DNA from: Reclinomonas americana ATCC 50394
Taxonomy: Eukaryota
Assembly: GCA_048213135.1 (NCBI GenBank)
Contig: PS015269.1
Coordinates: forward strand, 1-40,376
Direction of reading: 5' to 3'
DNA: 40,376 nt
A program made the translations under genes and the position numbers. Shown here piece after piece: positions 1 to 40,200 of the stretch (position 1 is its first letter; each line of letters starts with the position of its first letter). The notes under the pieces were generated by a model. The model saw only the letters and a list, made by a program, of their open reading frames with translations. It did not search any database and had not been told where the DNA came from.

Positions 1-42
<42 letters not shown>
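1..42. repeat. (AG)n microsatellite
   Basis: Perfect AG dinucleotide run at the window start. Confidence 0.95.
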
Positions 43-44
<2 letters not shown>

Positions 45-246
45 AGAAGGTGAGAAGAGTGGACAAAGGCAATGAGAAGACGAGAGAAAGAGAGGAGAAG
101 CGACAAGTAAGAAAGGAAGAGAGGGGAATGAGAGGGGAATTAGAAGGGCAAAGAAGAGGGACAAAGGCAAAGAGAGGGAGAGCGACAAGGAGAGAGAGAG
201 AGAGAATCAGAAGGCGAGGAAGAGCGAGAAGGAGAGTGAGAGGAAC

Positions 247-2536
247 GAGAAAAGGCCTAGCAAGCAGTAAGATTTGACGCGCAAGTGGTTGATTTCAAAT
301 ACGATGCTCACCGACGAGGATGTACTGCGCGGAGGGAAACCATGAGTATAATGACCAGCAAGGTGCACGGAAATGAATCACGACGCAACGGCCTGTTGTC
401 GAGCATTGGAAAGAGCGCGAGGAGAGAACACAGGTGAGTATAACGCAGAGCAGCCAGAACGTGTTTGGCAGAAGTACTCACGCACTGCACGAAACACAGC
501 AGTTAGTAACGCGGATGCACGACGACATCAAGCAACATCAACGCAACAGCACGGCCACCGCTGGAAGATTCCAAGGGAAGAGACGATACGTGTTAGAGGG
601 AAAGACCCGAACACATCATACTGAGATCAGGAGCTCACCGGAACGCCCTGCACGAGAAAGAAGAGTGAGAGGTGAATTTTCAGCGCACAGCAAGGATGTG
701 ACAAGCAAACGCAACATGAATGTGATGCGTGTCCTGAAGTCGTGACCCAGGAAAAACAGTGAGCGGCAACGCTTAGAGAGAGACGCAAGCAGGCAGAGAC
801 GCACCGGATCCACGGCCATCGCATTTCCGCCATGAAGAAGAAGGCACCGCTGCAGAGGCGAAGAGTGAGACACAAGGCGAGAAAGAGAGAGGAGGAGAGG
901 GGAGGTTACGCAACAACAAGATGGCGTAGATGGCCTGCAGCAATGCCGAGAACATGCATAGTTAGTGGTGCGTGGAGTCAAAGGAGAGCGGCTGGTCGAT
1001 CCATGACGCAACGATGACGATCTGCGAGGGAGGGAAGTGAGTGAACAGAGATATCGGGACGGGAAACGAAAGAAAAGGATAAAACACAAGACTAAAATCG
1101 CGAATCGATCGATGTGTGCATCGGTGAAAGAATAACTGAATGCTCTCACAAGGGGGACAGAGAACCACATCAATGGAAAATCAAGCGCAAGATACGCAGA
1201 ATGTTTCTCACTCGAGTAGCAATGGCGCGGGGAGACATAAGGGCTTCAACGTGCGAACAAAAATAAGAATCCTCCCAAGAAGCAAACACAGAAAGAGGAC
1301 AGCGCGCGCGCGCGCAAGAGAGTGAGGGAGAGAGAAAGATGAACAAGAGCCTCAGCAGAAGGTCATGACGCATCAAGATGGAGGAGACTGCATTCCATGT
1401 CAGTGTTCAAACGAGTGGATATCGAGGTGCGCAATAGATTAAAGAATGCTCTCACAACGACGCAGCCACATCAAAACAACCATGTCTATTGCCACGCCAG
1501 CCAGCCAACTCACCGCACGGAAGTCCAGTCCGCCAATGAAGATAAACGTCAGAATGCTACAATCCAACAAGAATCAATACACAGGCACCCACAGCAGCGA
1601 TCGCCAACAACGCAGACGAACCCTGCGAACAAAAAACAAAGCGCACAGTCAGCAAATGCAGAAGAGTCGTTCTCTCGCGTGCTTGGTGAAGCAGAGTACG
1701 CTCTGTTTGCTGCCTCCACCTCTCCCGTCACGCAGGCTTCTTGTTCGCTCTCACAACTTCCACCTCCGCGCTCCCTTCCATTGTCTGCATCTCCATCTTA
1801 CTTCACTCGCATAGCATTCTCAAGTTCTCTCAGTGAGTGCATCTCTGCGTGCACACACAGCTTCGTCTGCCTCTCCACTCTTCGTACACAGCATCCTCCT
1901 GCGCTCTCTATTCCCCTCCTCCCGCAGTTAGGGTCTCTAAGCGCGAACACACAGAGCAACTTCTCCCTCGTTTTCTCTATCCGTGACTCTCTCAGCGAGT
2001 GGGTCTCTGCAGATACACAGCTTCTTCACCGTCTCTCACACTCTGTCAGTAACACACAGCATTCTCCACACACACACACCTCTGCTTCATCTTCTCTTCG
2101 CCGTCTCGCCGATTGTCACATCGCACTCGGACACAGTCTCTTCCTTCACCCTCTCTTCTCCCCGTTCGCTTCTATCTCCTCTCTCTCTCTCTCTCTCGCA
2201 CACACACATCTTCTTCTTCTCTTCGCCGCCTCACTACATTCTCTCCCTCGAACTCAGACAGACTCCTCCTTCACTCTCTCTTTCTCTCTCTCTCTCTTAC
2301 ACACACGCACAGACACCTTCTTCATCTTCTTCGCCGCCTCAATGCATTCTCTCCCTCGCACTCAGGCACACACTCTTCTTTCGCTCTCCCTTCTCCCTCT
2401 TCGCTTCCATCTCCTCTCTCTCTCTCTCACACACACACATCTTCTTCTTCTCTTCGCCACCTCACTGCATTCTCTACCTCGCACTCAGACACGGACTCTT
2501 CTTTCGCTCTCCCTTCTCCCTCTTCGCTTCCATCTC

Positions 2537-2569
<33 letters not shown>

Positions 2570-2648
2570 CTTCTTCTCCTTCTTCTTCTTCGACTTCTCT
2601 TTGCCTTCACTTCCAGATAGCATCTCTGTGCAGATACACAGCATTCTC

Positions 2649-2725
<77 letters not shown>

Positions 2726-2885
2726 NNNNNNNNNNNNNNNNNNNNNNNNNNNNNNNNNNNNNNNNNNNNNNNNNNNNNNNNNNNNNNNNNNNNNNNNNNN
2801 NNNNNNNNNNNNNNNNNNNNNNNNNNNNNNNNNNNNNNCTCTCTCTCCTACTACTACTACGTACTCTCTCTCGTCGTACGTACTA

Positions 2886-2953
<68 letters not shown>

Positions 2954-3465
2954 CATTCTCTCCCTCACACTACGATAGCCTGTCTCTTCTTTCGCTCCTT
3001 ATCTCTCTATCCTTCACGCACACATCTTCTTCTTCGTCTTCTCTTTGTCTCGACTGTCAGATCTCTCACTCAGCGAGTGCATCTCTGTGCAGATACACAG
3101 CTTCTTCTTTGCCTTCTCTCTCTCTCACACACACACACACACTTGCAGACAGAACATTCTCTGACAATCAAACTCAATCTCCCCTCCACATCTCTCATCC
3201 CCTCTCTCCCCACACCCGTTCTCCTCACACACACTCACCATCAGCTACACACACAATAGCCCGCAAGTCACACAACACGCGCAATGTCCGTCAGTGCACA
3301 ACTGACACACACACACTCTCTCTCTCTCACACACAGACCAATCATCGCAGCCGACGCGATCAGACCCTAACACCGAGAGAGAGAGAGAGTGCGTGAGTCA
3401 CGGAGAAACATAAGAGTGTGTGAGAGAGAGCCGCTCACCAATATGCGAAGCATACGATCGCCCAT
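247..3465 (-). CDS. TVP15/COPI_assoc-family Golgi membrane protein, 3'-partial, micro-exon gene
   Basis: Hand-spliced GT-AG exons (minus strand): 3439-3465, 3339-3366, 3239-3244, 1622, 1514-1556, 1013-1021, 915-934, 805-849, 716-733, 639-647, 548-560, 482-484, 390-392, 312-324, 247-256 (last one tentative). They give MGDRMLRILGLIASAAMIADGILTFIFIGGLDFRAIVIAIYAILFGAFFFMAEMRWPWIRTRITFMAFRGGRACAYILVGLFS. The pattern Y-x-I-L-F-G...E...F-M...G-R-x-x-x-Y-I-x-V-G matches my recollection of the TVP15/COPI_assoc family. The C-terminus was not traced and probably lies off the window. Confidence 0.8.
2130..2720. repeat. Diverged ~120-bp tandem repeat with (CT)n/(CA)n tracts inside a long intron
   Basis: Recurring unit ...cttcgcttccatctcctctctc(ct)n(ca)ncatcttcttcttctcttcgccrcctcactgcattctct.cctcgcactcag... 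about four times. Confidence 0.8.
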
Positions 3466-3909
3466 GAACTGTTGAGAGAGACAAACGCGCGTGTGTGAGC
3501 GAGTGAGTGAGAGAGAGAGAGAGCGTGCGCGCAAGCAAGTGACTTGCAAAACACAAAGGAATATACCACACAACACAACACAACAACAAGTGGCGATTCT
3601 CTTCTCATGTACACACTTTTGCACACACTTGCACACATGCAGCGAAAAGAGCGACTTTGCAAGGCGCACTTAGGCGTCACCTAAGGCGTGATTCAGGCGT
3701 CGCCTTTACTATCGCCTGACAAGAACAGCCTACTCACACACACAAAGGCGACTGCTGCACACACTTACAAAAACATCATACCTTTTCCATGCATCCTCCC
3801 ATGATTGCTGCTCTTCACAAAGACACACACTGCGCGACAATCGTCGAAGTGATGGCTAAGTCGGATCGACTAACTCGACCGTGAAATTAACCGTGACTTT
3901 CATCGTGAG

Positions 3910-17900: not shown

Positions 17901-18763
17901 NNNNNNNNNNNNNNNNNNNNNNNNNNNNNNNNNNNNNNNNNNNNNNNNNNNNNNNNNNNNNNNNNNNNNNNNNNNNNNNNNNNNNNNNNNNNNNNNNNNN
18001 NNNNNNNNNNNNNNNNNNNNNNNNNNNNNNNNNNNNNNNNNNNNNNNNNNNNNNNNNNNNNNCCACCACCACCACCTCCTCCCTCATCTCCACCGATCCC
18101 GACGCTCAGTCGATCCGCTCCGACGACGCCTGGTCGATGGAGTCGGTGGAGCTGACGCGCGAGCAAAAGCAAAAAGTGCTCGACACCAAGTGCAAGGCGC
18201 GCGGCGAGAACCTCTCCGGCGGCTACGCGCAGAGTGTGGCGCTGGCGCGCGTGTTTTTGCGCCGCAACGCCCGCATCCTCATCCTGGACGAGAGCATGAG
18301 CGCCATGGACACGTACAAGAAGCGCAACATCATGAAGGAGCTGTTTGCGTTTATGCGCGCCAACTGCATGACGCTCATCATCATCAGCCACGAAATGTCG
18401 GTGCTGAACTCGGTGGATCACATTCTCGTGCTGGAGGCCGGGCGCCTGATCGAGCAGGGCTCGCTGGCCGAGTTGTCGGCGGCGCCGTTGCGTGGTCTCC
18501 TCTGTGTGACATGGTGATCGGTCTCTCATTTGTTCTCTTGTAGATCGGAGGTGTTTTTGAAGCTAGTTGGCGACGCGTTGCCCATGTCGCAGTCCATGTC
18601 GAGCATGCACTCCATTTTGGCGTCGGCCTCTCTGGGACCAATGGACGCTGCGGTGGCGTTCCGCGCGAACTCGGTCGCGTCACCGGATACGCCGCTGTCG
18701 CCGGTGGAGCCGCCGAGTGGGCGGCGACGTGCCACCGACCCGGCACGACTCATGGGCGAATGA
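11021..18763 (+). CDS. ABC half-transporter (TMD-NBD, ABCB-like topology) with divergent motifs
   Basis: Exons 11021-11182, 12597-12769, 13379-13637, 14603-14833, 14899-15025, 15089-15201, 15718-15785, 15858-15983, 16042-16135, 16196-16317, 16382-16631, 17304-(gap)-18486 and 18544-18763 splice in frame. Walker A GQNRSGKST, Q-loop YVPQ, FDGTIRENI, signature LSGGYAQ, Walker B ILILDE, D-loop SAMD, H-loop IISH. Further exons may lie in gaps. Confidence 0.9.
12020..12330. repeat. ~135-bp tandem duplication (2 copies plus a partial) in ABC intron 1
   Basis: gattttgcagtctgatc...ttcccttccttcccc...gactgtggaagggtgactgaatg occurs twice, and gatccactgctgc starts a third copy. Confidence 0.8.
15265..15665. 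repeat. 25-bp minisatellite (ctctcgctctcctcgctttgcgtct) decaying into a shorter variant, intronic
   Basis: Directly visible tandem units within ABC intron 15202-15717. Confidence 0.9.
16745..17010. repeat. ~70-bp direct repeat (2 copies) in an ABC intron
   Basis: cacgaaag.tgtctctcaattct.cgatcggctgactct.ttgcatcctctgc.caca.ttccctc at ~16748 and ~16943. Confidence 0.8.
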
Positions 18764-19003: not shown

Positions 19004-27299
<8,296 letters not shown>

Positions 27300-28237: not shown

Positions 28238-28365
28238 ATGACCTCACTGGAATGGATTGCGATCAGCGGTGTGCGCTCATTCGGGTTCGTGCGGGAAAGG
28301 GTCGAGCTCATCCCCCCCTCTCTGCAGTCATTCTGCATTTGCCTGACTGTTTTCATCTCCACTAT

Positions 28366-28409
<44 letters not shown>

Positions 28410-30181
28410 TTCTCTCTCTCTCTCACTCACTCACTCACTCTCCCTCACTTCCTCTCTGCACTTTCCCTTTCCCTTCCTCTCATTTCCCTTTCCTTTCCCC
28501 CTCACAGACCACAAGAGCGACAGGACTTGCAGTTCCTGAAACCGATGACGTTGCGAGGCCTTCCCACCACTGTGCTGAGTCTCCCACAGCCGACTGATCG
28601 TTCCTTCACGCGCAGAGTCATTCTCGGTCACAATGGCACCGGCAAGACGGTTTCGTGCATCACTGATCTCCCCGCTTGCACATTGCCTCACGCTCTGACG
28701 TGCAGACCATTATCGAGTGCCTGCGCGTGGCCACCACGGGAGAGATGCCGCCCGGCTCCAGCAACGGGCAGACCTTTGTGCACGACCCAAAGGTCGACGG
28801 CGACTCGAAAGTTCTCGCGCAGATCCGACTGCAGTTCAGCGATGCGAACGAGTCGAAGCACGTGGTGTTGCGTGCTCTCCTGGTTGCGCGCGTTCACTTC
28901 ATGTTGGCGTTGTCTTACTCGCAAGCGTCGCAGCACTCGCTCGTTCGAGTTGCAGCAAGTGGGCGAAAAGTCGCGCTACCGCACCCTCGACGTCACGCTC
29001 GAGACGAAGCGACGAGGTGGTGAAGTTTCGTGAAGGAGACAGATGCCCTCTCTTGCTTTTCTCGCCGCACTCCTCGTGTCTCGCCGCGCTCATCGTGTAT
29101 CGCTGTGCTCCTCGTGTCTCGCTGTGCTCCTCGTGTCTCGCTGTGCTCCTCGTGTATCGCTGTGCTCCTCGTGTCTCTCGTGTCTCGCTGTGCTCCTTGT
29201 CTCTCGCCTTGCTCCTCGTCTCTCGCCGTGCTCCTTGTCTGTCGCCGTGCTCCTTGTCTGTCGCCGCGCTCCTTGTCTGTCGCCGCGCTCCTTGTCTGTC
29301 GCCGCGCTCCTTGTCTCACACCGCGCTCCTCGTGTCTCGCCGCGGTCCCTATCTCTCGCCGCGTTCCTTGTCTCTCACCTCGCTCCTTGTATCTCGTCTT
29401 GCTCCTTGTCCTCGACACGCTTCTTGTCTCTCACCGCACTCCTTGTGTCTCGCCGTGCTCCCTGTCTCTCGCCGCTCCCCGTCTCTCTTCGTGCTTCTTG
29501 TCTCTCGCTGCGCTCCTCGTCTCTCTCCGTGCTCCTCGTCTCTTGCCGCCCTCCTTGCTCTACCGCGCTCCTTGCTCTACCGCGCTCCTTGTGTCTCTCG
29601 CCGCGCTCCCTGTCTCTCGCCGCGCTCCCTGTCTCTCGCCGCGCTCCTTGTCTCTCACCTCACCCCTTGACTCTCGCCTTGCTCCTTGCTCCTCGTCTCT
29701 CGCCCTGCTCCTCGTCTCTCGCCGCGCTCCTTGTCTCTCGCCGCGCTCCTTGTCTCTCTTCATGATTCCTGTCTCTCGCCGCTCCCTTCCCTCCCTTCAC
29801 CCTTCCTTTCCCTTCTCTCCCATCCCCACCCCTTCCCCCTTCTCACCCCCTTCCCCCTCCCTTCCCCCTCCCGCAGCGCGTCACCCAAACTAGCCGCTGC
29901 GCCGACATCAAAGACCTCATCCCGCAACTCATGCAAGTCTCCCCCGCCGTGCTCGACAACGTCATGTTCTGCCACCAAGAAGAGTCGAGCTGGCCCATGG
30001 CCCCGCCGCGCGACGTCAAGGCGCGCTTTGACGACATTTTTGCCTCGACTCGGTACCGATGCTTTTTTCTCTCTTTTCTTCTTTCTTGTCTCTCTGTTTC
30101 CCACAGCCTCTCGCAGCTACTCCATGGCCCTCGATGCTCTCCGCCGNNNNNNNNNNNNNNNNNNNNTTCTTCTTCTCTCTT

Positions 30182-30221
<40 letters not shown>

Positions 30222-31416
30222 TCCCTGCACTCACAGAGTCGCCTCTTAGAACCGATCTCACTCAACCTTGTTGCTTACTGCCTTCCCCCTTCCCTCCCCT
30301 TCCTCCCTCCCCTCTTTCCCTCTCACAGGAGGCCGAGTTCGACAACCACATGCGTGATCTCGCCATGCAACGCCACCTCAGCGACAAGCTCTCCCCGCTG
30401 CTGGAGCGCTCCTCCACTAGGTTTGGCTGACTCTTTCTCTCTTGTCAACTTTTTTTCTTTGTTGCTAACTTTGTCGCCAGCCGTGAGCAACTGCTGGCGG
30501 CCGTGCGCGAGCGCCTGGACGAATTGCGCAGCAAGGGCACCGAGCTGGTGGCCAAGAACCGCACCGACCTGACGCGCCTCAACGAGCAGATTCAACGCTG
30601 CGAGGTCGAGCTCAGCAGTCAGCGCGCCGTGCAGGGCCAGTTGAAGGAGCAGCAGGTTCCGTCATCACTTGTCTTCACCTCGCACTCTCCATCTCTTCCC
30701 AGTCCCACCTCTCCCTCTCTCTTTTCTTGCTGTCGCACTTGCACTCACTCCTCCTTGTCGCAGCGAGTGGTCCGCGATCGTCTCTCTGCGCGCCAGTCCC
30801 AGATGCACTCCATCACCACATCGGAGAGGGCGTTGGAGGAGGCCAAGCGCATTCTCAAAACGCGCACAGAGGCCATTTGCACGGCCGATCAGCACTTGCA
30901 GGAGAGCAAGGTGGCGGAGCGGCGCGAACAGTTGCGCTCCCCGCATTGCGCATCGCCTCTCACGCTCTCCGCTCACACACACGCCTCTCACGCTCTCCGC
31001 TCACACACACGCACGCAACGCAGAATCACACAGCGTCAAGTCCAACTGCGCAAAAGCCTGCAGCAGCTGAACGACGAACTGCGAATGCGCGAGGAGGAAC
31101 AGGAGCAGGGCATTCGCCTGAAGATGGAGCAGGAGCAAGCGGCCAGCCGGCAGGCACAGTTGCTGGAGCTGGAGCGAGAGTTCCGAGTTGCGTCAAAGGG
31201 ATTGTTCGCTGATGCACTTGCTGGTGTTGACCCCATTTTTGTTGATATTGCAGACCAAGGCCGCCACGCGCAATGTACGAATCCGTGCCGACGACTTTAT
31301 TACCAGCATCACCGATGCGGTGGCGCTGGCGACGCGGTCACTGGGCGATGCGAATGCAGAGCTGACGGAGGTGCGGATTGAGGGACGCAGGCACAGAGAT
31401 GCGAGAGATGAGGCGC

Positions 31417-31458
<42 letters not shown>

Positions 31459-32035
31459 AAGAGAGAGAGAGGAGACGAAGGTGCTGAGAGTAGGACNNNN
31501 NNNNNNNNNNNNNNNNNNNNNNNNNNNNNNNNNNNNNNNNNNNNNNNNNNNNNNNNNNNNNNNNNNNNNNNNNNNNNNNNNNNNNNNNNNNNNNNNNNNN
31601 NNNNNNNNNNNNNNNNNNNNNNNNNNNNNNNNNNNNNNNNNNNNNNNNNNNNNNNNNNNNNNNNNNNNNNNNNNNNNNNNNNNNNNNNNNNNNNNNNNNN
31701 NNNNNNNNNNNNNNNNNNNNNNNNNNNNNNNNNNNNNNNNNNNNNNNNNNNNNNNNNNNNNNNNNNNNNNNNNNNNNNNNNNNNNNNNNNNNNNNNNNNN
31801 NNNNNNNNNNNNNNNNNNNNNNNNNNNNNNNNNNNNNNNNNNNNNNNNNNNNNNNNNNNNNNNNNNNNNNNNNNNNNNNNNNNNNNNNNNNNNNNNNNNN
31901 NNNNNNNNNNNNNNNNNNNNNNNNNNNNNNNNNNNNNNNNNNNNNNNNNNNNNNNNNNNNNNNNNNNNNNNNNNNNNNNNNNNNNNNNNNNNNNNNNNNN
32001 NNNNNNNNNNNNNNNNNNNNGAGTAATCATCATCG

Positions 32036-32077
<42 letters not shown>

Positions 32078-35000
32078 CTTCTTTCTTCTATTATTGCTTG
32101 CTTTCTTGCTTGTTTACTTTCTTTTCTTACTTAGTTTCTTTGTCTTTCGTTCTCCCTCTCCACCCCGTTCTGCACACTCACCCTCTCTTCCCCTCTTTCA
32201 TCGCTTCCCCTCCCCAACCCCTTTCTATCTCAACCCCTTCCCTCTTCCCATCCTTCCCCTCATTCTCCACCCCCCTTCCCCTCCCCACCCCCCTTCCCCT
32301 CCCCACCCTCCTTTTCCCTCCCCACCCCCTTCCCCTCTCTCCCCCTTCCCCTATGTCGCAGGCCACCCGCAACTACACGCAAAAGGACATCATGCTCACC
32401 CGCGAGCGTGAGCAACTCGCGCGACTGCACGCGGAGCGCGAACGCACCGCCGCCGAAATCCGCGAGGTGTGCCCCGATGGCGACGTGGAGTCCGCATGCA
32501 AGGCTGCCAGAGACAGCCTGGACAAGGCCAACAAGTTTCGTGTGCCCTCTTGCCGACGTGCAATGCATAGGACTTTTCCTCATTCTGTTCTGCAGGAAAA
32601 AGCTGAAGCTCGACATGCTCGAATCGCAGAATGCCGCGTGGCGCGAGTCCGCCGACCACCACAACCGATGTGATGTGTGCCGGCGCGACTTTCATGGCGA
32701 CGAAGAGAAAAAGGCGTTTGTCAGCAGGGTGAGTTTCCGAGGACAAGTGAGCGAGAGAGAGAGTCTTTGTATTCATCATTTCTCTTCTCTCTTGCGCAGT
32801 GCACGTCGCGCATCGAAAAAGCGCCAAAAAAGCGAGAGGCGAACAGGGCCGCCGTGGCGCGAGAGGACGCGCGAGTGACAGCGCTGCAGCGGTTGCTGCC
32901 GCAGAGCGCAAGGGTGCGACCGCGCGAAGTATCCTTCTCCTTTTGCTTTATCTCATCCTTCTCCTTGCGTCACGCAGCTTCACGAGATTGAGCAGGTCGA
33001 CATTCCGCGCTGCACGTCGGCGGTCGACACTCTGGAGGAGGAGGTCGGAACACTGCGCCGTCAAGTCAACCGTCTCACCGACGTGCTGCAAGAATGCAAG
33101 GTATGTGGATTTGTTTGTATCTTTCCTCTCATCTCTCACTCTCTTTCTCCTCGCCAGTCTGTGTTCTCCGCCCCTCTCGCTCCACTTCTCTAATTTGGAC
33201 CTTATGTATCCACTCCTGTCTTATTTCTTTCACTTTCTTTCTCTCTTGCCTTGGTTCTCTCGCGTGCTTCCTTACCGCTTTCCATGTCCCTCATGCCAAT
33301 CTTCCCTCTGCTTTCTTACTCTCTTGCCTTGATTCTCTCGCCCTGCTTCCTTACCCCTTTCCATGTCCCTCATGCCAAGCTTCCCTCTTCCCCCTCGCTG
33401 TTCTCATTCAATGGTGCACAGGACCGCGTGGCCGGCGTTGAGTCTCTGCGAGCGGATGCAGTGCAATTGGAGGGCCTGCGAGCCGACGTGATTGTCGCCA
33501 CGGAGAATGCCAGCAAGCTGCAGTCGCAGCTGAGTCGGTCGAGTGGATCACGGTCGTACGACGAGCTGCAACGACGGCGCGATGAGTTGCAGACTGAGAG
33601 GTTTGGTCGTGCACGGCCAGAGCTTTCTCTTCCTCTCTCCTTCCTTCCTGATTCCCCACCACAGCGACAAGCTGGCATTCGAGCTGCAGCAACTGCAGCA
33701 ACGATATGACGGTCTCAACGCTGAGCTGCAGAACGCCACGCAGGCGGCGAGTGAGCAACGCGAGCGAGTGAATCAGCTGACGGCCGATTTCCAGCGCCTG
33801 AAGGAGTTGGAGGTGGAGGTGGAGCGCGATCAGCTGGAGCTGGACACGCTCACGCGCAAGTACGAGGAGAGCGAGGCGCGGTGTCAGCCGCTACAAGGAG
33901 ACGTGCGCAAGCACACTGAGGTGCGGGGTGCTGCTGGCAGAGGTCACATTTCGATCGTCGTTAACCTTACTTGTCTGTGTGCAGGAGCGCGACAGGAAGC
34001 AGCGCGAGAACGTGGCAAGTGAGCGCGAGGTGCAGCAAATGTACTCTGACGTGCAGAAAATGGAGGCCAAGACCAGCGCGCTGCTCGCCGACATTACCAG
34101 GTTGCGTGCCAGCGCCGTTTCGCATTTCTTTTTCATCCCCTCATCTCTCTCTTCTCTCGCCAGTGTGCGAAAGCAATGCACGCCACAGTTGCTGGCCGAC
34201 TCGGCCGCTCGTGTCGAGGAGCAGGGCGCCAAGTACGAGGCCTGCAAGGCCGAGCTGACCAAGCTGACTGACGACATTGCCAATTGTCGTCAACAGCTGA
34301 ACAGCAGCCAGTTGAACAAGGTGAGCTGTGGGCAGGTGCCGCCGTGGTCCTTGTTTGCTGGTGTGCCCTCACATTCTTCGCACAGCGCACTATCCACGAC
34401 ACTCTCCTGTTGCGGAAGAAGAAGAGTGAGCAGGCCGAGTGCGAGGAGCGGCTGAAGTTGGCCACTGGCAAATTGCTGGCCACCAATGTCGACCGGCTCA
34501 AGTCGGATGTCGACGATGCGCAGCGGAAGCTGAGGGAGATGGAGAACAATGTTGCGTGTGCCTGTGATTCAGTACGCGCGACGTGGCCTCTCACTCCTTC
34601 AGTCTCTGTGTGCAGGCCGCTCAACTGGAGGGCATGCGTCTCGCCACACAGCAGCACATAACGTCGCTCGAGCGCGACCTGATGGTCGAAAAGTACCGGT
34701 ACGCCGACCGCAACTTCCGCAACACGCTCATCAAGGTGCGCACCATCGAGGTGGCTGTGCGTGACCTGGAAAAGTACCGCGCAGCGCTGGAAAAGGTATG
34801 TCGCCTTCTCACCATCTCTACTTTCATTTTGTCTCTCATCTCTTTTTCCCCCCAAGGTGATGCGTGCGTACCACGCCAACAAGATGCGTGAGATCAACCA
34901 AATCATCCGCGAGCTGTGGCAAAAGACGTACAAGGGCACCGACATTGAGTATATTGAGATTGTGTCGGACGCCGAGGCCACCGGCGGCAACAAGCGCAAC

Positions 35001-35675
35001 TCGTTCAATTACCGCGTGGTGATGCACCGCGGTGGCGCAGCGCTGGATATGCGCGGTCGATGCAGTGCCGGTCAGAAGGTGCTGGCCAGTCTGATCATTC
35101 GCCTGGCGCTGGCGCAGGCGTTTTGCATTCAGTGTGGCGTGATTGCGCTGGACGAGCCGACCACGAATTTGGATGCCGACAATGTGGCCAGTTTGGCCGA
35201 TGCGCTGCAGGCGTTGCGTGAGAGGGAGAGGAGGAGGGAGAGGGAGGGGGGAGAAAAGGGAAGCGGAGAGGGAGAGAGAGAGACTCCATGCAAACTACAG
35301 AAGGGCAGAGTGAGAGGTGTCTCTTCCCTACTTGTCTCCTTTTTTCTTGGAGCGATATGTTGACTTATTCTTTGTTCATGCAGTATTGTGCGCGACCGAC
35401 TTCACCAAGGTGTGTGCTGCGCGTCCCTGTCTCGATATTTCCGATCACTTATGATACTCGACGCAGCCAACTTCCAGCTGATTGTCATCACGCACGACGA
35501 GGGCTTTGTGCAACGTCTCGGCCGATCAGAGTGTTGCGTTTTGGTTGACGTGAGGGTTGCACGTCGATGGTCGCCGTCTTACATTCACTGTGCAGTCATC
35601 GACTCGTACTATCGCGTGTCGCGTGATCCGGCCACTCAGCACTCGGTGATCGAGAGGCAGAACTTTATGATATAA
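28238..35675 (+). CDS. RAD50: DNA double-strand break repair ATPase RAD50
   Basis: At least 24 GT-AG introns splice in frame: [48 protein letters not shown]...FVHDPK...[12 protein letters not shown]...[10 protein letters not shown]. Long coiled coil with zinc hook CDVC (~32668-32680). C-terminus [24 protein letters not shown]...[11 protein letters not shown]...[10 protein letters not shown]...YYRVSR, stop TAA 35673-35675. Part of the N-terminal coil is lost in gaps. Confidence 0.98.
29070..29785. repeat. 19-bp minisatellite (gctccttgtctctcgccgc-like) in RAD50 intron 5
   Basis: Many degenerate tandem units inside intron 29025-29876. Confidence 0.9.
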
Positions 35676-35786
35676 TGAGGCTCAGTGTACATTGTTCACC
35701 GATGTATCGATGTGGTCGGTGGACAGCAGCACCTTAGAGTCCTGCGTCAATGTTGTCCTTTCTGTTGTATCTCTAGCATCTATCGA

Positions 35787-37209: not shown

Positions 37210-40200
37210 ATGGCGATAAGACACTTTCTCGTCCCGTTGTTCGTCCTCACTTTGTTTGCTGTGTTTGCCACGGGTGAGTGCACTGTTGAGTGTGTGAGGG
37301 AGTGAGAGAGACAGAGTGTGCTCACTGGTGCTTGTGTAGCTGTGGCCTCGCGATGCTCCTCTGACGATCAGTGCAATGCTCCTCATGGTGAGTTCTCCCT
37401 CTTTCAGCAGACGCGGGCGGCAGGCAGAGTGATGGAGGAGAGAGGGAGGGGAGGAGAGAGAGAGCAGGCTTGGGACGAGGTCGCTCCTCATGCTTCTCCT
37501 CATACCCTTCTCCTCACCCCTTCTCCCCATCCTCCTCCCCATCCTCCTCCCCATCCTCCTCCCCATCCTCCTCCCCATCCTCCTCCCCATCCTCCTCCCC
37601 ATCCTTCTCCCCATCCTCCTCCCCATCCTCCTCCCCATCCTCCTCCCCATCCTCCTCCCCACCCTGCTCCCCACTCTGCTCCCCACTCTGCTCCCCACTC
37701 TTCTCCTCACATCCTTCTCCTCACATCCTTCTCCTCACATCCTTCTCCTCACATCCTTCTCCTCACATCCTTCTCCTCACATCCTTCTCCTCACATCCTT
37801 CTCCTCACATCCTTCTCCTCACATCCTTCTCCTCACATCCTTCTCCTCATACCCTTCTCCTCACACCCTTCTCCTCACACCCTTCTCCTCATACCTTCTC
37901 CTCATACCCTTCTCCTCATAGCCTTCTCTTCACCCTTCTCTTCACCCTTCTCCTCACACCCTTCTCTTCACCCTTCTCCTCACACCCTTCTCCTCACACC
38001 CTTCTCCTCACACCCTTCTCCTCACACCCTTCTCCTCACACCCTTCTCCTCACACCCTTCTCCTCATACCTTCTCCTCATACCCTTCTCCTCATACCCTT
38101 CTCACACCCTCACCCTTCTCTTTCCCCGTCTCTTCTCCCCACCCTCACCCTTCTCCTTCTCCTCACCCTCCCCCCAGGTCGCTGTGTCGACGGCATGTGC
38201 ATGTGCACCAACCGCCTGGTCGGCGGCGAATCGTGCGAGTGCCACCCCGACATGACACACACGTGCCACTCGTACCCCTCGATCTACGCCGTGCCGACGG
38301 GCGATGGCACGCAAATGTGCGTCGACCTGGCCACCTGCATCAAGGCCAAGGGCGTGCTGATTGTGCCCGGCGAGCAACCGCCACCACCGGTGGTGAAGGC
38401 TGCTGTGACTCCGACGTGCTCCTCCAACTCGCACTGCAATTACCCGTACGGCTCGTGTGTCGATGGGTGAGTTTCTTCACTCTTCTGTTCCTTGCTTCAC
38501 TCTTATTTCTCATCGTCCTTTTCGTTTGCAGTGCATGCCGATGCCTCGGTCACCTTGTCGGTGGTGTGCACTGCCAGTGCCGCCCGACGACGGATCCCAC
38601 GCTGCGTTGCATGCGGCAGCCGGATGTGTACTCGGTGGCCGGCGTGTGCTCGGATCTGGCCGATTGTGTGGCGTGGACGGAGCGTGGTGTGTTGCCGGCG
38701 GCCATTCGTCCGCTTGACCCGTCGCGTGGAGAGGCGTGCTTGACCAACACCGACTGCGGTGCTCATGGTGCGTATGGGTGTGAGTTGCCTTCATCCCTCC
38801 CCTTCTTTCTCAAATCTCTCTTTATGTATCTCTCTCTCCTCTTCCCCGACAGGCACGTGCAACAAGGATACTCGGTGAGTCCCCCCGCATTACCTTCTCC
38901 ATTTCGCCCCTCCCCCTGCTGACTCCTTTTGTGTTGCTGCGCAGCAAATGCATCTGCAACAACGCATCTGTTGGCGGCCGCCAGTGCGGGTGTGTTCCCG
39001 ACGCGTCGACCTGCCCCTCGGCACCGTCGTCGTACTTTGTGGCCGGAGAGTGTGTCTCGCTGCGCGAGTGCATCGCCACCAGGGATCCACACCTGCATGT
39101 GGCCGACATGGCGCCGACGCTGCTGCAAGTGCGCGTGACCGGTGTGACCACCACCGAGTTCAATCCGCTCGACGCCGTGGTGGTGTTTGAGTTGACAACG
39201 GGTGGCGGGTTCCGTGTACCGGCCGCGTTCCCGGCCGGCGGCTACTCGCTCATCAACTACGGCGCCGGTGACTTGAGCATGGAGCCGGTGCACCGCGTGG
39301 AGTTGCCCGACGCGCTCAGCGAGACCGAAGCGAGCTTTTCGAACGTGCTGGTGTCGGGTCGCAACCTGCTCGTCTTCTCCTACATGGACACGTTTGGTCG
39401 TCCGATTGTGCACCACACCACGGTCTGGGGCGGCACCAACACGGTCACGGTGCAGCTGGTGGTCGGCAGCGACGGCAAGGAGCTGTTTAATGAGTCCGCG
39501 CACGTGACGGTGACCATGTTTGACGAGAGCAGCATCACGGTCGGTCCGCTGCTGGTGACGACCGGCACGGTCACGGTGCACAATGTGCCGTCCACCAACA
39601 TGTCGATTTATGCCGAGTCGGCGACTGGTGGCGGCGTGTCGGGTCACTATGGTGGCGTCCCGCGCAGCACCATGCAGGTGCGCATGTTGGGCTACCAGCA
39701 GCCGAGCACCGAGGACAACAACAACTTGTCGCACGCCGACATTGCTGGCTGGACGCCTTCGTCGCACGCGGCCGTGGCGGTGGCGGCGCACGTGGAGCTG
39801 TCGGACGAGCTGCCGCCGGACGGCATTGTTCGCCGCCACCCGCACGCCAGTCTGAGTGACATGCGTCGCGAGCGCTCCGAGGCGCACGCGGCGATTGGAC
39901 CCATGCCTGCCATGCCGAGCCATCACGCCGACCACTACGACACGCACCTCGACCTCGACCTGATGGCCAACACCAACTACGATGTGCACCTGTCGACCAG
40001 CTCGAGCTTCTCGGAGCAGACGCTCACGCGCGCCTTTGTGACCAAGCCGAAGACCACCTCGGTGCAAGTGCGCTACCGCTTTGTGACGCTGGAGTACACC
40101 TCGTTCTTCGGCACCGCCTTCAACGACTACTATCGCGTTCAGCTGCGCTCGCACCGCAACGACGACGAGGTGGTGGACAGTCGCAGCCTGAACTCGCTCG

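Follow-up and report, generated by a model that had tools for sequence, protein, structure and literature searches.

Can a single nucleotide be spliced as an exon of its own? The question is raised by a guanine, G1622, on the minus strand of the window (the whole stretch of DNA that was analysed: 40,376 nt of contig PS015269.1 from Reclinomonas americana ATCC 50394), where an AG that can end an intron and a GT that can begin one stand directly on either side of this one base (CAG/G/GTTCGT, 1625-1616, slashes marking the proposed junctions). It lies in a candidate gene for a small membrane protein on the minus strand, and a preliminary description had proposed it as a one-base exon supplying the middle position of a codon that three exons share, preceded by a 6-nt exon and strictly required by the reading frame. 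The elements named in that description are in place on the minus strand: the CTGAC motif, the T-rich tract, the CAG/G/GTTCGT junction, the 65 nt running from there to a TAG at 1557, the hexamer CTGATG and a 43-nt exon. The gap of 113 Ns at 2726-2838 was likewise confirmed.

We judged the splice signals by a yardstick taken from the same window, namely the 47 GT-AG introns of two genes, RAD50 and a gene for a TPR-repeat protein, from which weight matrices and leave-one-out ranks were computed. For RAD50 (plus strand, 28238-35680) the mapping used 10 of the 120 homologues listed, the best identity among those 120 matches being at most 72%, and it gave 23 GT-AG introns with unbroken reading frames. 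The TPR gene (minus strand, 23921-20460) supplied the 24 further introns; its spliced product of 351 residues, with zero stops, keeps a perfect 34-residue register across ten repeats, and this unbroken register validates every TPR junction. No frame break occurred in the 1,491 curated codons across the 47 introns, and the same codons were used to train the codon log-odds given below.

Intron length forms a very tight class in the curated set, with 40 of the 47 introns at 53-76 nt. Acceptors are CAG in 44 cases, AAG in two and TAG in one, and stand in a TGCAG or CGCAG context in 31 of the 47; the donor spectrum is unusual, led by GTTGCG (10 of 47) and GTTTCG (4), followed by GTGAGT, GTATGT and GTGTG[C/T] (3 each, the last including the donor of a 952-nt TPR intron). 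The three longest validated introns have strong, pyrimidine-rich CAG acceptors at their 3' ends, and the long introns of 852 and 952 nt in the window are both repeat-rich and end in this manner. Five validated exons of the TPR gene measure 12-16 nt, and none of the 51 validated exons in the window is shorter than 12 nt. Introns and microexons are unusually abundant in this genome. The idea that its short introns form an introner-like family was considered and rejected, the matches being only 10-13 nt long and of low complexity.

By this yardstick the sites on both sides of G1622 have the strength of real ones. The acceptor at 1623 (CAG, 1625-1623, in a CGCAG context) scores 9.2 bits, with a leave-one-out rank of 32/47, and the donor at 1621 (GTTCGT, 1621-1616) scores 7.4 bits, with a rank of 31/47; each stands above the median curated site, and both match the organism's own consensus. 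Branch and pyrimidine signals lie upstream (1652-1626): CTGAC at 1652-1648, its branch A lying 26 nt from the acceptor, then a T-rich tract at 1641-1626, a layout matched by the curated acceptors. The spacing from 1621 to 1557, 65 nt, equals the modal intron length of the curated set, and the candidate intron thus delimited (1621-1557) contains a TTGAT branch-like motif, with its A at 1574, 17 nt from the intron end, before closing on the TAG at 1559-1557, an acceptor of only 0.4 bits. GTTCGT had been said to act as a donor at two other places in the window; the one at 28285 opens RAD50 intron 1 and is validated, and the other, cited as 25003, is at 25002 on the minus strand and lies outside the validated set.

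How readily would such an arrangement arise by chance? There are 18 AG-N-GT pentamers between 3338 and 1557, and 1623 is the sole acceptor among them in the real range (the runner-up has 3.6 bits); the best donor is also found there, at 1621, and only the 1623/1621 pair lies at the modal intron length of 65 nt from the next exon. When both strands of the window (2 x 40 kb) were scanned for pairs separated by 1 nt with an acceptor score of at least 9 and a donor score of at least 7, two passed: 1623/1621 and 18232/18234, the latter being false, inside an ABC-transporter exon. A lower-scoring pair, 21496/21494 in the TPR gene, is false too, the real exon there having 16 nt; chance pairs therefore exist. 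A second-order Markov simulation gave an expectation of 0.11 such pairs per 40-kb strand, and roughly several thousand tries would be needed before a chance pair fell precisely 65 nt ahead of the right acceptor. The bare AG-N-GT pentamer is within chance; the signal strength at 1623/1621 is beyond it.

The candidate gene starts upstream with exon 1 (3802-3782), an ATG and six further codons with a codon log-odds of +3.7, followed by a GTATGA donor at 3781 of 9.8 bits. Exon 2 (3468-3439) has 30 nt, is in phase 0 at both ends, and has its frame as the top of three by codon log-odds. Exon 3 follows a TAG acceptor at 3367, and its 28-nt core (3366-3339) scores +4.3 in the frame of the gene vs -9.3 and +1.1 in the others. 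Its end is less clearly marked, in that a GT-rich run (3338-3323) on its 3' side offers four candidate donors, at 3338, 3334, 3332 and 3330, so that the exon may end at 3335, 3333 or 3331 besides 3339. Donors 3338 and 3332 are in phase 1, 3334 is in phase 2 and 3330 in phase 0; their scores are weak throughout and none stands out (-1.5, 0.5, 0.0 and 0.6 bits for 3338, 3334, 3332 and 3330). The hexamer CTGATG, a doubtful 6-nt exon, is at 3244-3239. A long intron of about 1.7 kb, with 3338, 3332 or 3238 as its candidate 5' end, would extend to 1623; it is rich in purines, carries (GA)n runs as well as a 123-nt tandem repeat, and includes the 113-N gap, which has (GA)n satellite on either flank. 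Beyond the 65-nt candidate intron comes the 43-nt exon (1556-1514), which opens on a third codon position and is followed by a GTGAGT donor at 1513 of 8.5 bits.

The 43-nt exon has a codon log-odds of +9.0 in the claimed frame, vs -20.7 and -18.1 in the other two. Judged by the codon log-odds, then, the 43-nt exon is in register with exon 3 only if the intervening sequence adds the right number of bases, and each of the phase-1 donors (3338, 3332 and 3238) requires G1622 if the frame is to be kept. The 65-nt stretch is non-coding, at -20.7 to -25.9 across all three frames, and its retention after use of acceptor 1623 brings stops in all three. Two longer coding readings were tried and rejected, one through the 65-nt stretch itself (log-odds below -20) and one with an 81-nt exon at 1702-1622 (-14.6). 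The base is nonetheless not strictly required, contrary to what had been claimed: a GT-AG splice from 3334, the phase-2 donor, to 1557 is canonical and in frame without G1622. Such a splice denies G1622 the standing of a needed single-nucleotide exon lacking any canonical alternative, and since the GT run has donors in every phase, frame alone decides nothing.

Competing splice models were therefore compared by a path score that joins the splice-site scores with an intron-length term and has no exon-length prior. Paths were enumerated from signals and length only, with a first exon of up to 60 nt, at most two internal exons of up to 30 nt and no intron below 45 nt. Among the 575,833 frame-consistent paths so obtained, all the top 100 include G1622. 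The G1622 models with exon 3 running to 3333 or to 3339 score -4.4 and -6.0, and the direct splice from 3334 to 1557 scores -16.7 (1,137th). The model proposed originally, 28 nt plus 6 nt plus G1622, reaches only -16.3 (1,014th), about level with the direct splice, and G1622 does better when joined directly to 3338 or 3332. Its weak point is the 6-nt exon at 3244-3239: the donor at 3238 (GTGAGT) is about the median of the curated set, at 5.1 bits, and the acceptor at 3245 has -4.2 bits, below all 47 curated acceptors, inclusion of the exon costing about 10 bits. A 10-nt version of the same exon scores -31.0. With G1622 better joined directly, the split codon may be G/G/C without any 6-nt exon, or T/G/C.

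Signals thus favour the G1622 path over the direct splice by about 12 bits. This advantage may be largely consumed by a low prior: with none of the 51 validated exons shorter than 12 nt, the prior for an exon of one base can hardly exceed about 0.5% and is maybe far lower, which costs at least 8 bits. A dynamic programme run unconstrained and with a coding term was discarded because a purine-rich repeat, whose GAG and AAG codons resemble RAD50 coding sequence, hijacked it; every path that the programme listed still ended in G1622.

The direct splice is the likeliest of the alternatives. Here exon 3 would have 32 nt (3366-3335), the GTGTGT donor at 3334 would be joined to the TAG at 1557 across a single intron of 1,778 nt, and 1623/1621 would be an unused decoy. 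The hydrophobic helix would run uninterrupted through this canonical, in-frame junction, no exotic exon would be necessary, and donors of the GTGTG type are validated in three of the 47 cases, the 952-nt TPR intron included. We nevertheless regard it as unlikely, for besides its poor score and rank beside the G1622 models it must skip a consensus branch, a T-tract and CGCAG, the first AG past the branch motif, in favour of a 0.4-bit TAG 66 nt further on, whereas the three longest validated introns have pyrimidine-rich CAG ends like that at 1623 and unlike that at 1557. If acceptor 1623 is used, the exon behind it could instead be longer than one base, since the phase-0 donor at 3330 makes exons of 5, 11 or 14 nt (from 1622 to 1618, 1612 or 1609, with a next intron of 61, 55 or 52 nt) consistent with the frame. 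The validated 12-16-nt exons of this genome lend the idea some appeal, as does the look-alike one-base pair in the TPR gene, which proved to mark the beginning of a 16-nt exon. However, the donors that these three exons call for score -5.9, -0.4 and -2.5 bits, each below all 47 validated donors, their paths score -17.3, -13.3 (the best short-exon variant) and -16.8, and the stretch they would draw on has strongly negative coding log-odds; we give such exons the least credence of the explanations weighed here.

Two further accounts would place the difficulty elsewhere. One is that 1623/1621 serve only unproductive or regulatory splicing, or that the gene is decaying, so that G1622 is outside the functional mRNA. 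The several weak sites in this region of the gene would suit such a locus, yet the codon log-odds are good and frames stay open through at least nine further predicted exons, and the 1623/1621 pair is placed exactly where phase-1 donors regain the frame; this we consider improbable. The other is an assembly artefact, whether through a one-base indel (placed in exon 3, in the GT run or in the 43-nt exon), through an exon hidden in the 113-N gap or through a misjoin at that gap. The assembly is a draft, with 10 runs of N in 40 kb, and the donor region is a GT/GA microsatellite, prone to length errors. Against this, the unbroken frame of all 1,491 curated codons over 47 introns makes a base-level error unlikely, the gap lies inside (GA)n satellite on both of its sides, and the hydrophobic segments encoded on either side of it follow one another in the order expected, which leaves an artefact very improbable in our estimate.

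On balance we lean, with rather slight conviction, towards G1622 being a one-base exon, a reading drawn from genomic sequence. What speaks for this reading is an acceptor and a donor of real strength, an intron of modal length, the stops that follow if the 65 nt are kept, and the presence of G1622 in the top paths; of the preliminary description, the appeal to a strict need of the frame does not stand and the 6-nt exon is doubtful. The small exons that this genome does splice (five TPR exons of 12-16 nt) are consistent with a one-base exon and count in its favour. Counting against it are the weakness of all the upstream candidate donors (-1.5 to 0.6 bits) and of acceptor 1557 (0.4 bits), and matrices limited to the 47 introns of two genes.

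On the reading of G1622 as an exon, intron definition would mark out two introns, each recognised independently of the other. One would be the long, satellite-expanded intron, starting at a phase-1 donor, 3332 or 3338, or less likely at 3238 after the 6-nt exon, and having CTGAC, the T-tract and CGCAG at 1623 as its 3' end; the 852- and 952-nt introns of the window resemble it and both end in a strong CAG, which fits 1623, not 1557, as that end. The other would be an ordinary 65-nt intron, 1621-1557. Because U1 at 1621 would overlap the factors bound to the acceptor at 1623, we propose that the introns are removed sequentially. The 65-nt intron would probably go first, since its donor then reads AGG/GTTCGT, which fits the preferences of curated donors at -3 to -1, and its removal would leave the long intron with an intact CGCAG acceptor. 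As the middle base of a codon, G/G/C (Gly) or T/G/C (Cys), the G that is kept would restore the frame of the 43-nt exon. The use of these sites, the choice among the upstream donors and the order of removal are what we infer here from observed signals and their relative strength, the observed frames and the observed unproductive outcome of retaining the 65 nt.

As for the gene itself, its assignment to the TVP15/COPI_assoc family (Pfam PF08507) is putative, and so is the motif invoked for that family around the split codon. Downstream of the 43-nt exon a dynamic programme (top path with the coding term, its exons being predictions only) places a series of exons on the minus strand between 1021 and 312: 1021-1013 (9 nt), 934-915 (20 nt), 849-805 (45 nt), 733-716 (18 nt), 647-639 (9 nt), 560-548 (13 nt), 484-461 or 484-482 (24 or 3 nt), 392-390 (3 nt) and 324-312 (13 nt). 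The two strongest acceptors of the gene are in this part, at 1022 (13.2 bits) and 648 (14.0 bits), with a donor within 9 nt of each; as the exons predicted after both are multiples of three, frame cannot validate them. If the predictions are sound, this membrane-protein gene appears to be extraordinarily fragmented.

Four read-through pieces of the gene (22-44 residues, each with only 4-15 true exon residues, and just 4 in the piece that carries the 13-nt exon 560-548) matched no Pfam family at E <= 10; the PF08507 profile has 130 positions and a cut-off of 30 bits. A homologue search with a 40-residue read-through piece gave three candidates, none of which was scored, and the exact 43-nt exon had no match in metagenome contigs. 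Among control genomes, the phage tblastn for family members came back blank and PF08507 found nothing over its cut-off in 14 genomes, all of them prokaryotes. An Rfam scan of the window gave no matches. In fungal members of the family the first helix is, we presume, of fixed length and would fit three inserted residues; such an insertion would, on the same assumption, suit exon 3 to 3333 plus G1622, or the 6-nt model, better than the direct splice, and we offer this as a lead. From the exon-3 anchor to the 43-nt exon the competing models insert between 1 and 4 residues.

Exons of one base are very rare but documented. The one in Fusarium CYP621A is the G of AGGGT, the middle base of a Gly codon spread over three exons, and is backed by 20-24 orthologues, 18 SRA reads and an intronless relative that gives the expected length (PMC12940212). 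Its likeness to G1622 extends to the AGGGT form, the middle G of a split codon, and boundaries in phase 1 upstream and phase 2 downstream; its flanking introns are described as short and typical of the organism, whereas the intron upstream of G1622 has about 1.7 kb (PMC12940212). G1622 differs from it also in being known from genomic sequence alone, with a canonical in-frame alternative. In Arabidopsis APC11 the single-nucleotide exon A333 was proven by cDNA and by base substitutions and a deletion in reporter constructs (PMC4674806). The two cases have in common one base between AG and GT, which in APC11 lay within a stretch annotated as one intron, and a branch-like A upstream; the study describes the APC11 base as needed for the frame (PMC4674806). 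Should the reading of G1622 hold, it would join APC11 and CYP621A and would not be a novel class.

Placozoan mitochondrial cox1, an organellar gene, is not known to use spliceosomal introns. The exon of one base described for that gene (PMC5436844) belongs to an organellar setting and has no GT-AG signals in common with G1622. In mechanism the nearest relatives, by analogy, are the zero-nucleotide recursive sites (ratchet points) of Drosophila, by which long introns are removed stepwise and which also juxtapose an acceptor to a donor in a long intron (10.1101/006163). At such sites AG abuts GT, and at 1623/1621 G1622 lies between them; nothing of a Drosophila ratchet point stays in the mRNA (10.1101/006163), whereas G1622 would be retained and would shift the frame.

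Gene callers fail at this locus, with its degenerate donors and tiny exons, and a caller that bars one-base exons would produce a frameshift or fall back on a weak alternative site. If the reading of G1622 as an exon is false, the locus is a warning: strong AG-N-GT pairs arise by chance, and two false ones occur in the same window. It is conceivable, and we suggest it quite tentatively, that this organism splices by strict intron definition, with introns near 63 nt, a non-standard 5' consensus (GTTGCG/GTTTCG) and routine use of exons of any size between 16 nt and one base, that G1622 would serve as a ratchet point of one base through which machinery adapted to very short introns removes a satellite-expanded 1.7-kb intron in two steps, and that this gene, whose exons number more than 14 and have a mean length of about 20 nt, would rank with the most fragmented nuclear genes on record. 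If G1622 is indeed an exon, Reclinomonas americana would be a natural system for asking what the minimum size of an exon is under intron definition.

The yardstick for splice sites in the window was a set of 47 validated introns, 23 from the RAD50 gene (plus strand, 28238-35680, at least 26 exons) and 24 from a TPR-repeat gene (minus strand, 20460-23921, 25 or more exons, each 12-121 nt long). The TPR exons, five of them just 12-16 nt long, were all validated through a perfect 34-residue repeat register, and 23 of the 24 introns that separate them measure 53-76 nt. In RAD50, the CxxC of the zinc hook is encoded by the exon at 32596-32728 (plus strand). Even the best of the homologues listed reach no more than 72% identity in the most conserved C-terminal exon, so none of these entries from the protein collection comes from a close relative of the organism.

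Two other places in the window resemble a one-base exon, and both were rejected. The minus-strand string CAG/A/GTATCG at 21480-21496 is a false case, because TPR spacing requires a 16-nt exon there, with a GTGTGC donor at 21479. On the plus strand, a strong acceptor-like and a strong donor-like site enclose a single base at 18232-18234, scoring 12.0 and 7.7 bits respectively on weight matrices built from the curated introns; an ABC-transporter exon covers this pair with its conserved signature region, and the match is thus due to chance.

The model of the membrane-protein gene, the minus-strand gene that holds the candidate one-base exon G1622, needs revision in its predicted downstream part. 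The exon starting at 934 (minus strand) has to end at 915, with donor GTTGCG at 914, and not at 910, if the frame is to be maintained; an 18-nt exon is predicted at 733-716 (minus strand), between exons of 45 and 9 nt. At the other extremity of the gene, a consensus CGCAG acceptor at 3828-3830 (minus strand), 28 nt 5' of the ATG, suggests that the 5' UTR contains an intron.

The three long introns measure about 1.7 kb in the membrane-protein gene (1623-3338, minus strand), 952 nt in the TPR-repeat gene (22365-23316, minus strand) and 852 nt in RAD50 (29025-29876, plus strand). Low-complexity satellite, in the form of tandem repeats rich in GA, GT or CT, fills all three; assembly gaps occur in two, and all three look like short introns enlarged by satellites. 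Separately, a long low-complexity open frame at 37400-38250 (plus strand) carries short repeats rich in proline, serine and histidine, and there is an arginine-/glycine-rich repeat on the opposite strand.

The 5' splice-site spectrum of the validated introns (20460-23921, minus strand, and 28238-35680, plus strand) is unusual. Among donor hexamers, GTTGCG (10 of 47) and GTTTCG (4 of 47) occur most often, rather than GTAAGT or GTGAGT; position +3 is T in the majority, and every one of the 23 RAD50 donors has C or G at position +5. An Rfam search of the window returned no matches, and hence no snRNA gene. The donor spectrum hints at an altered 5' end of U1.
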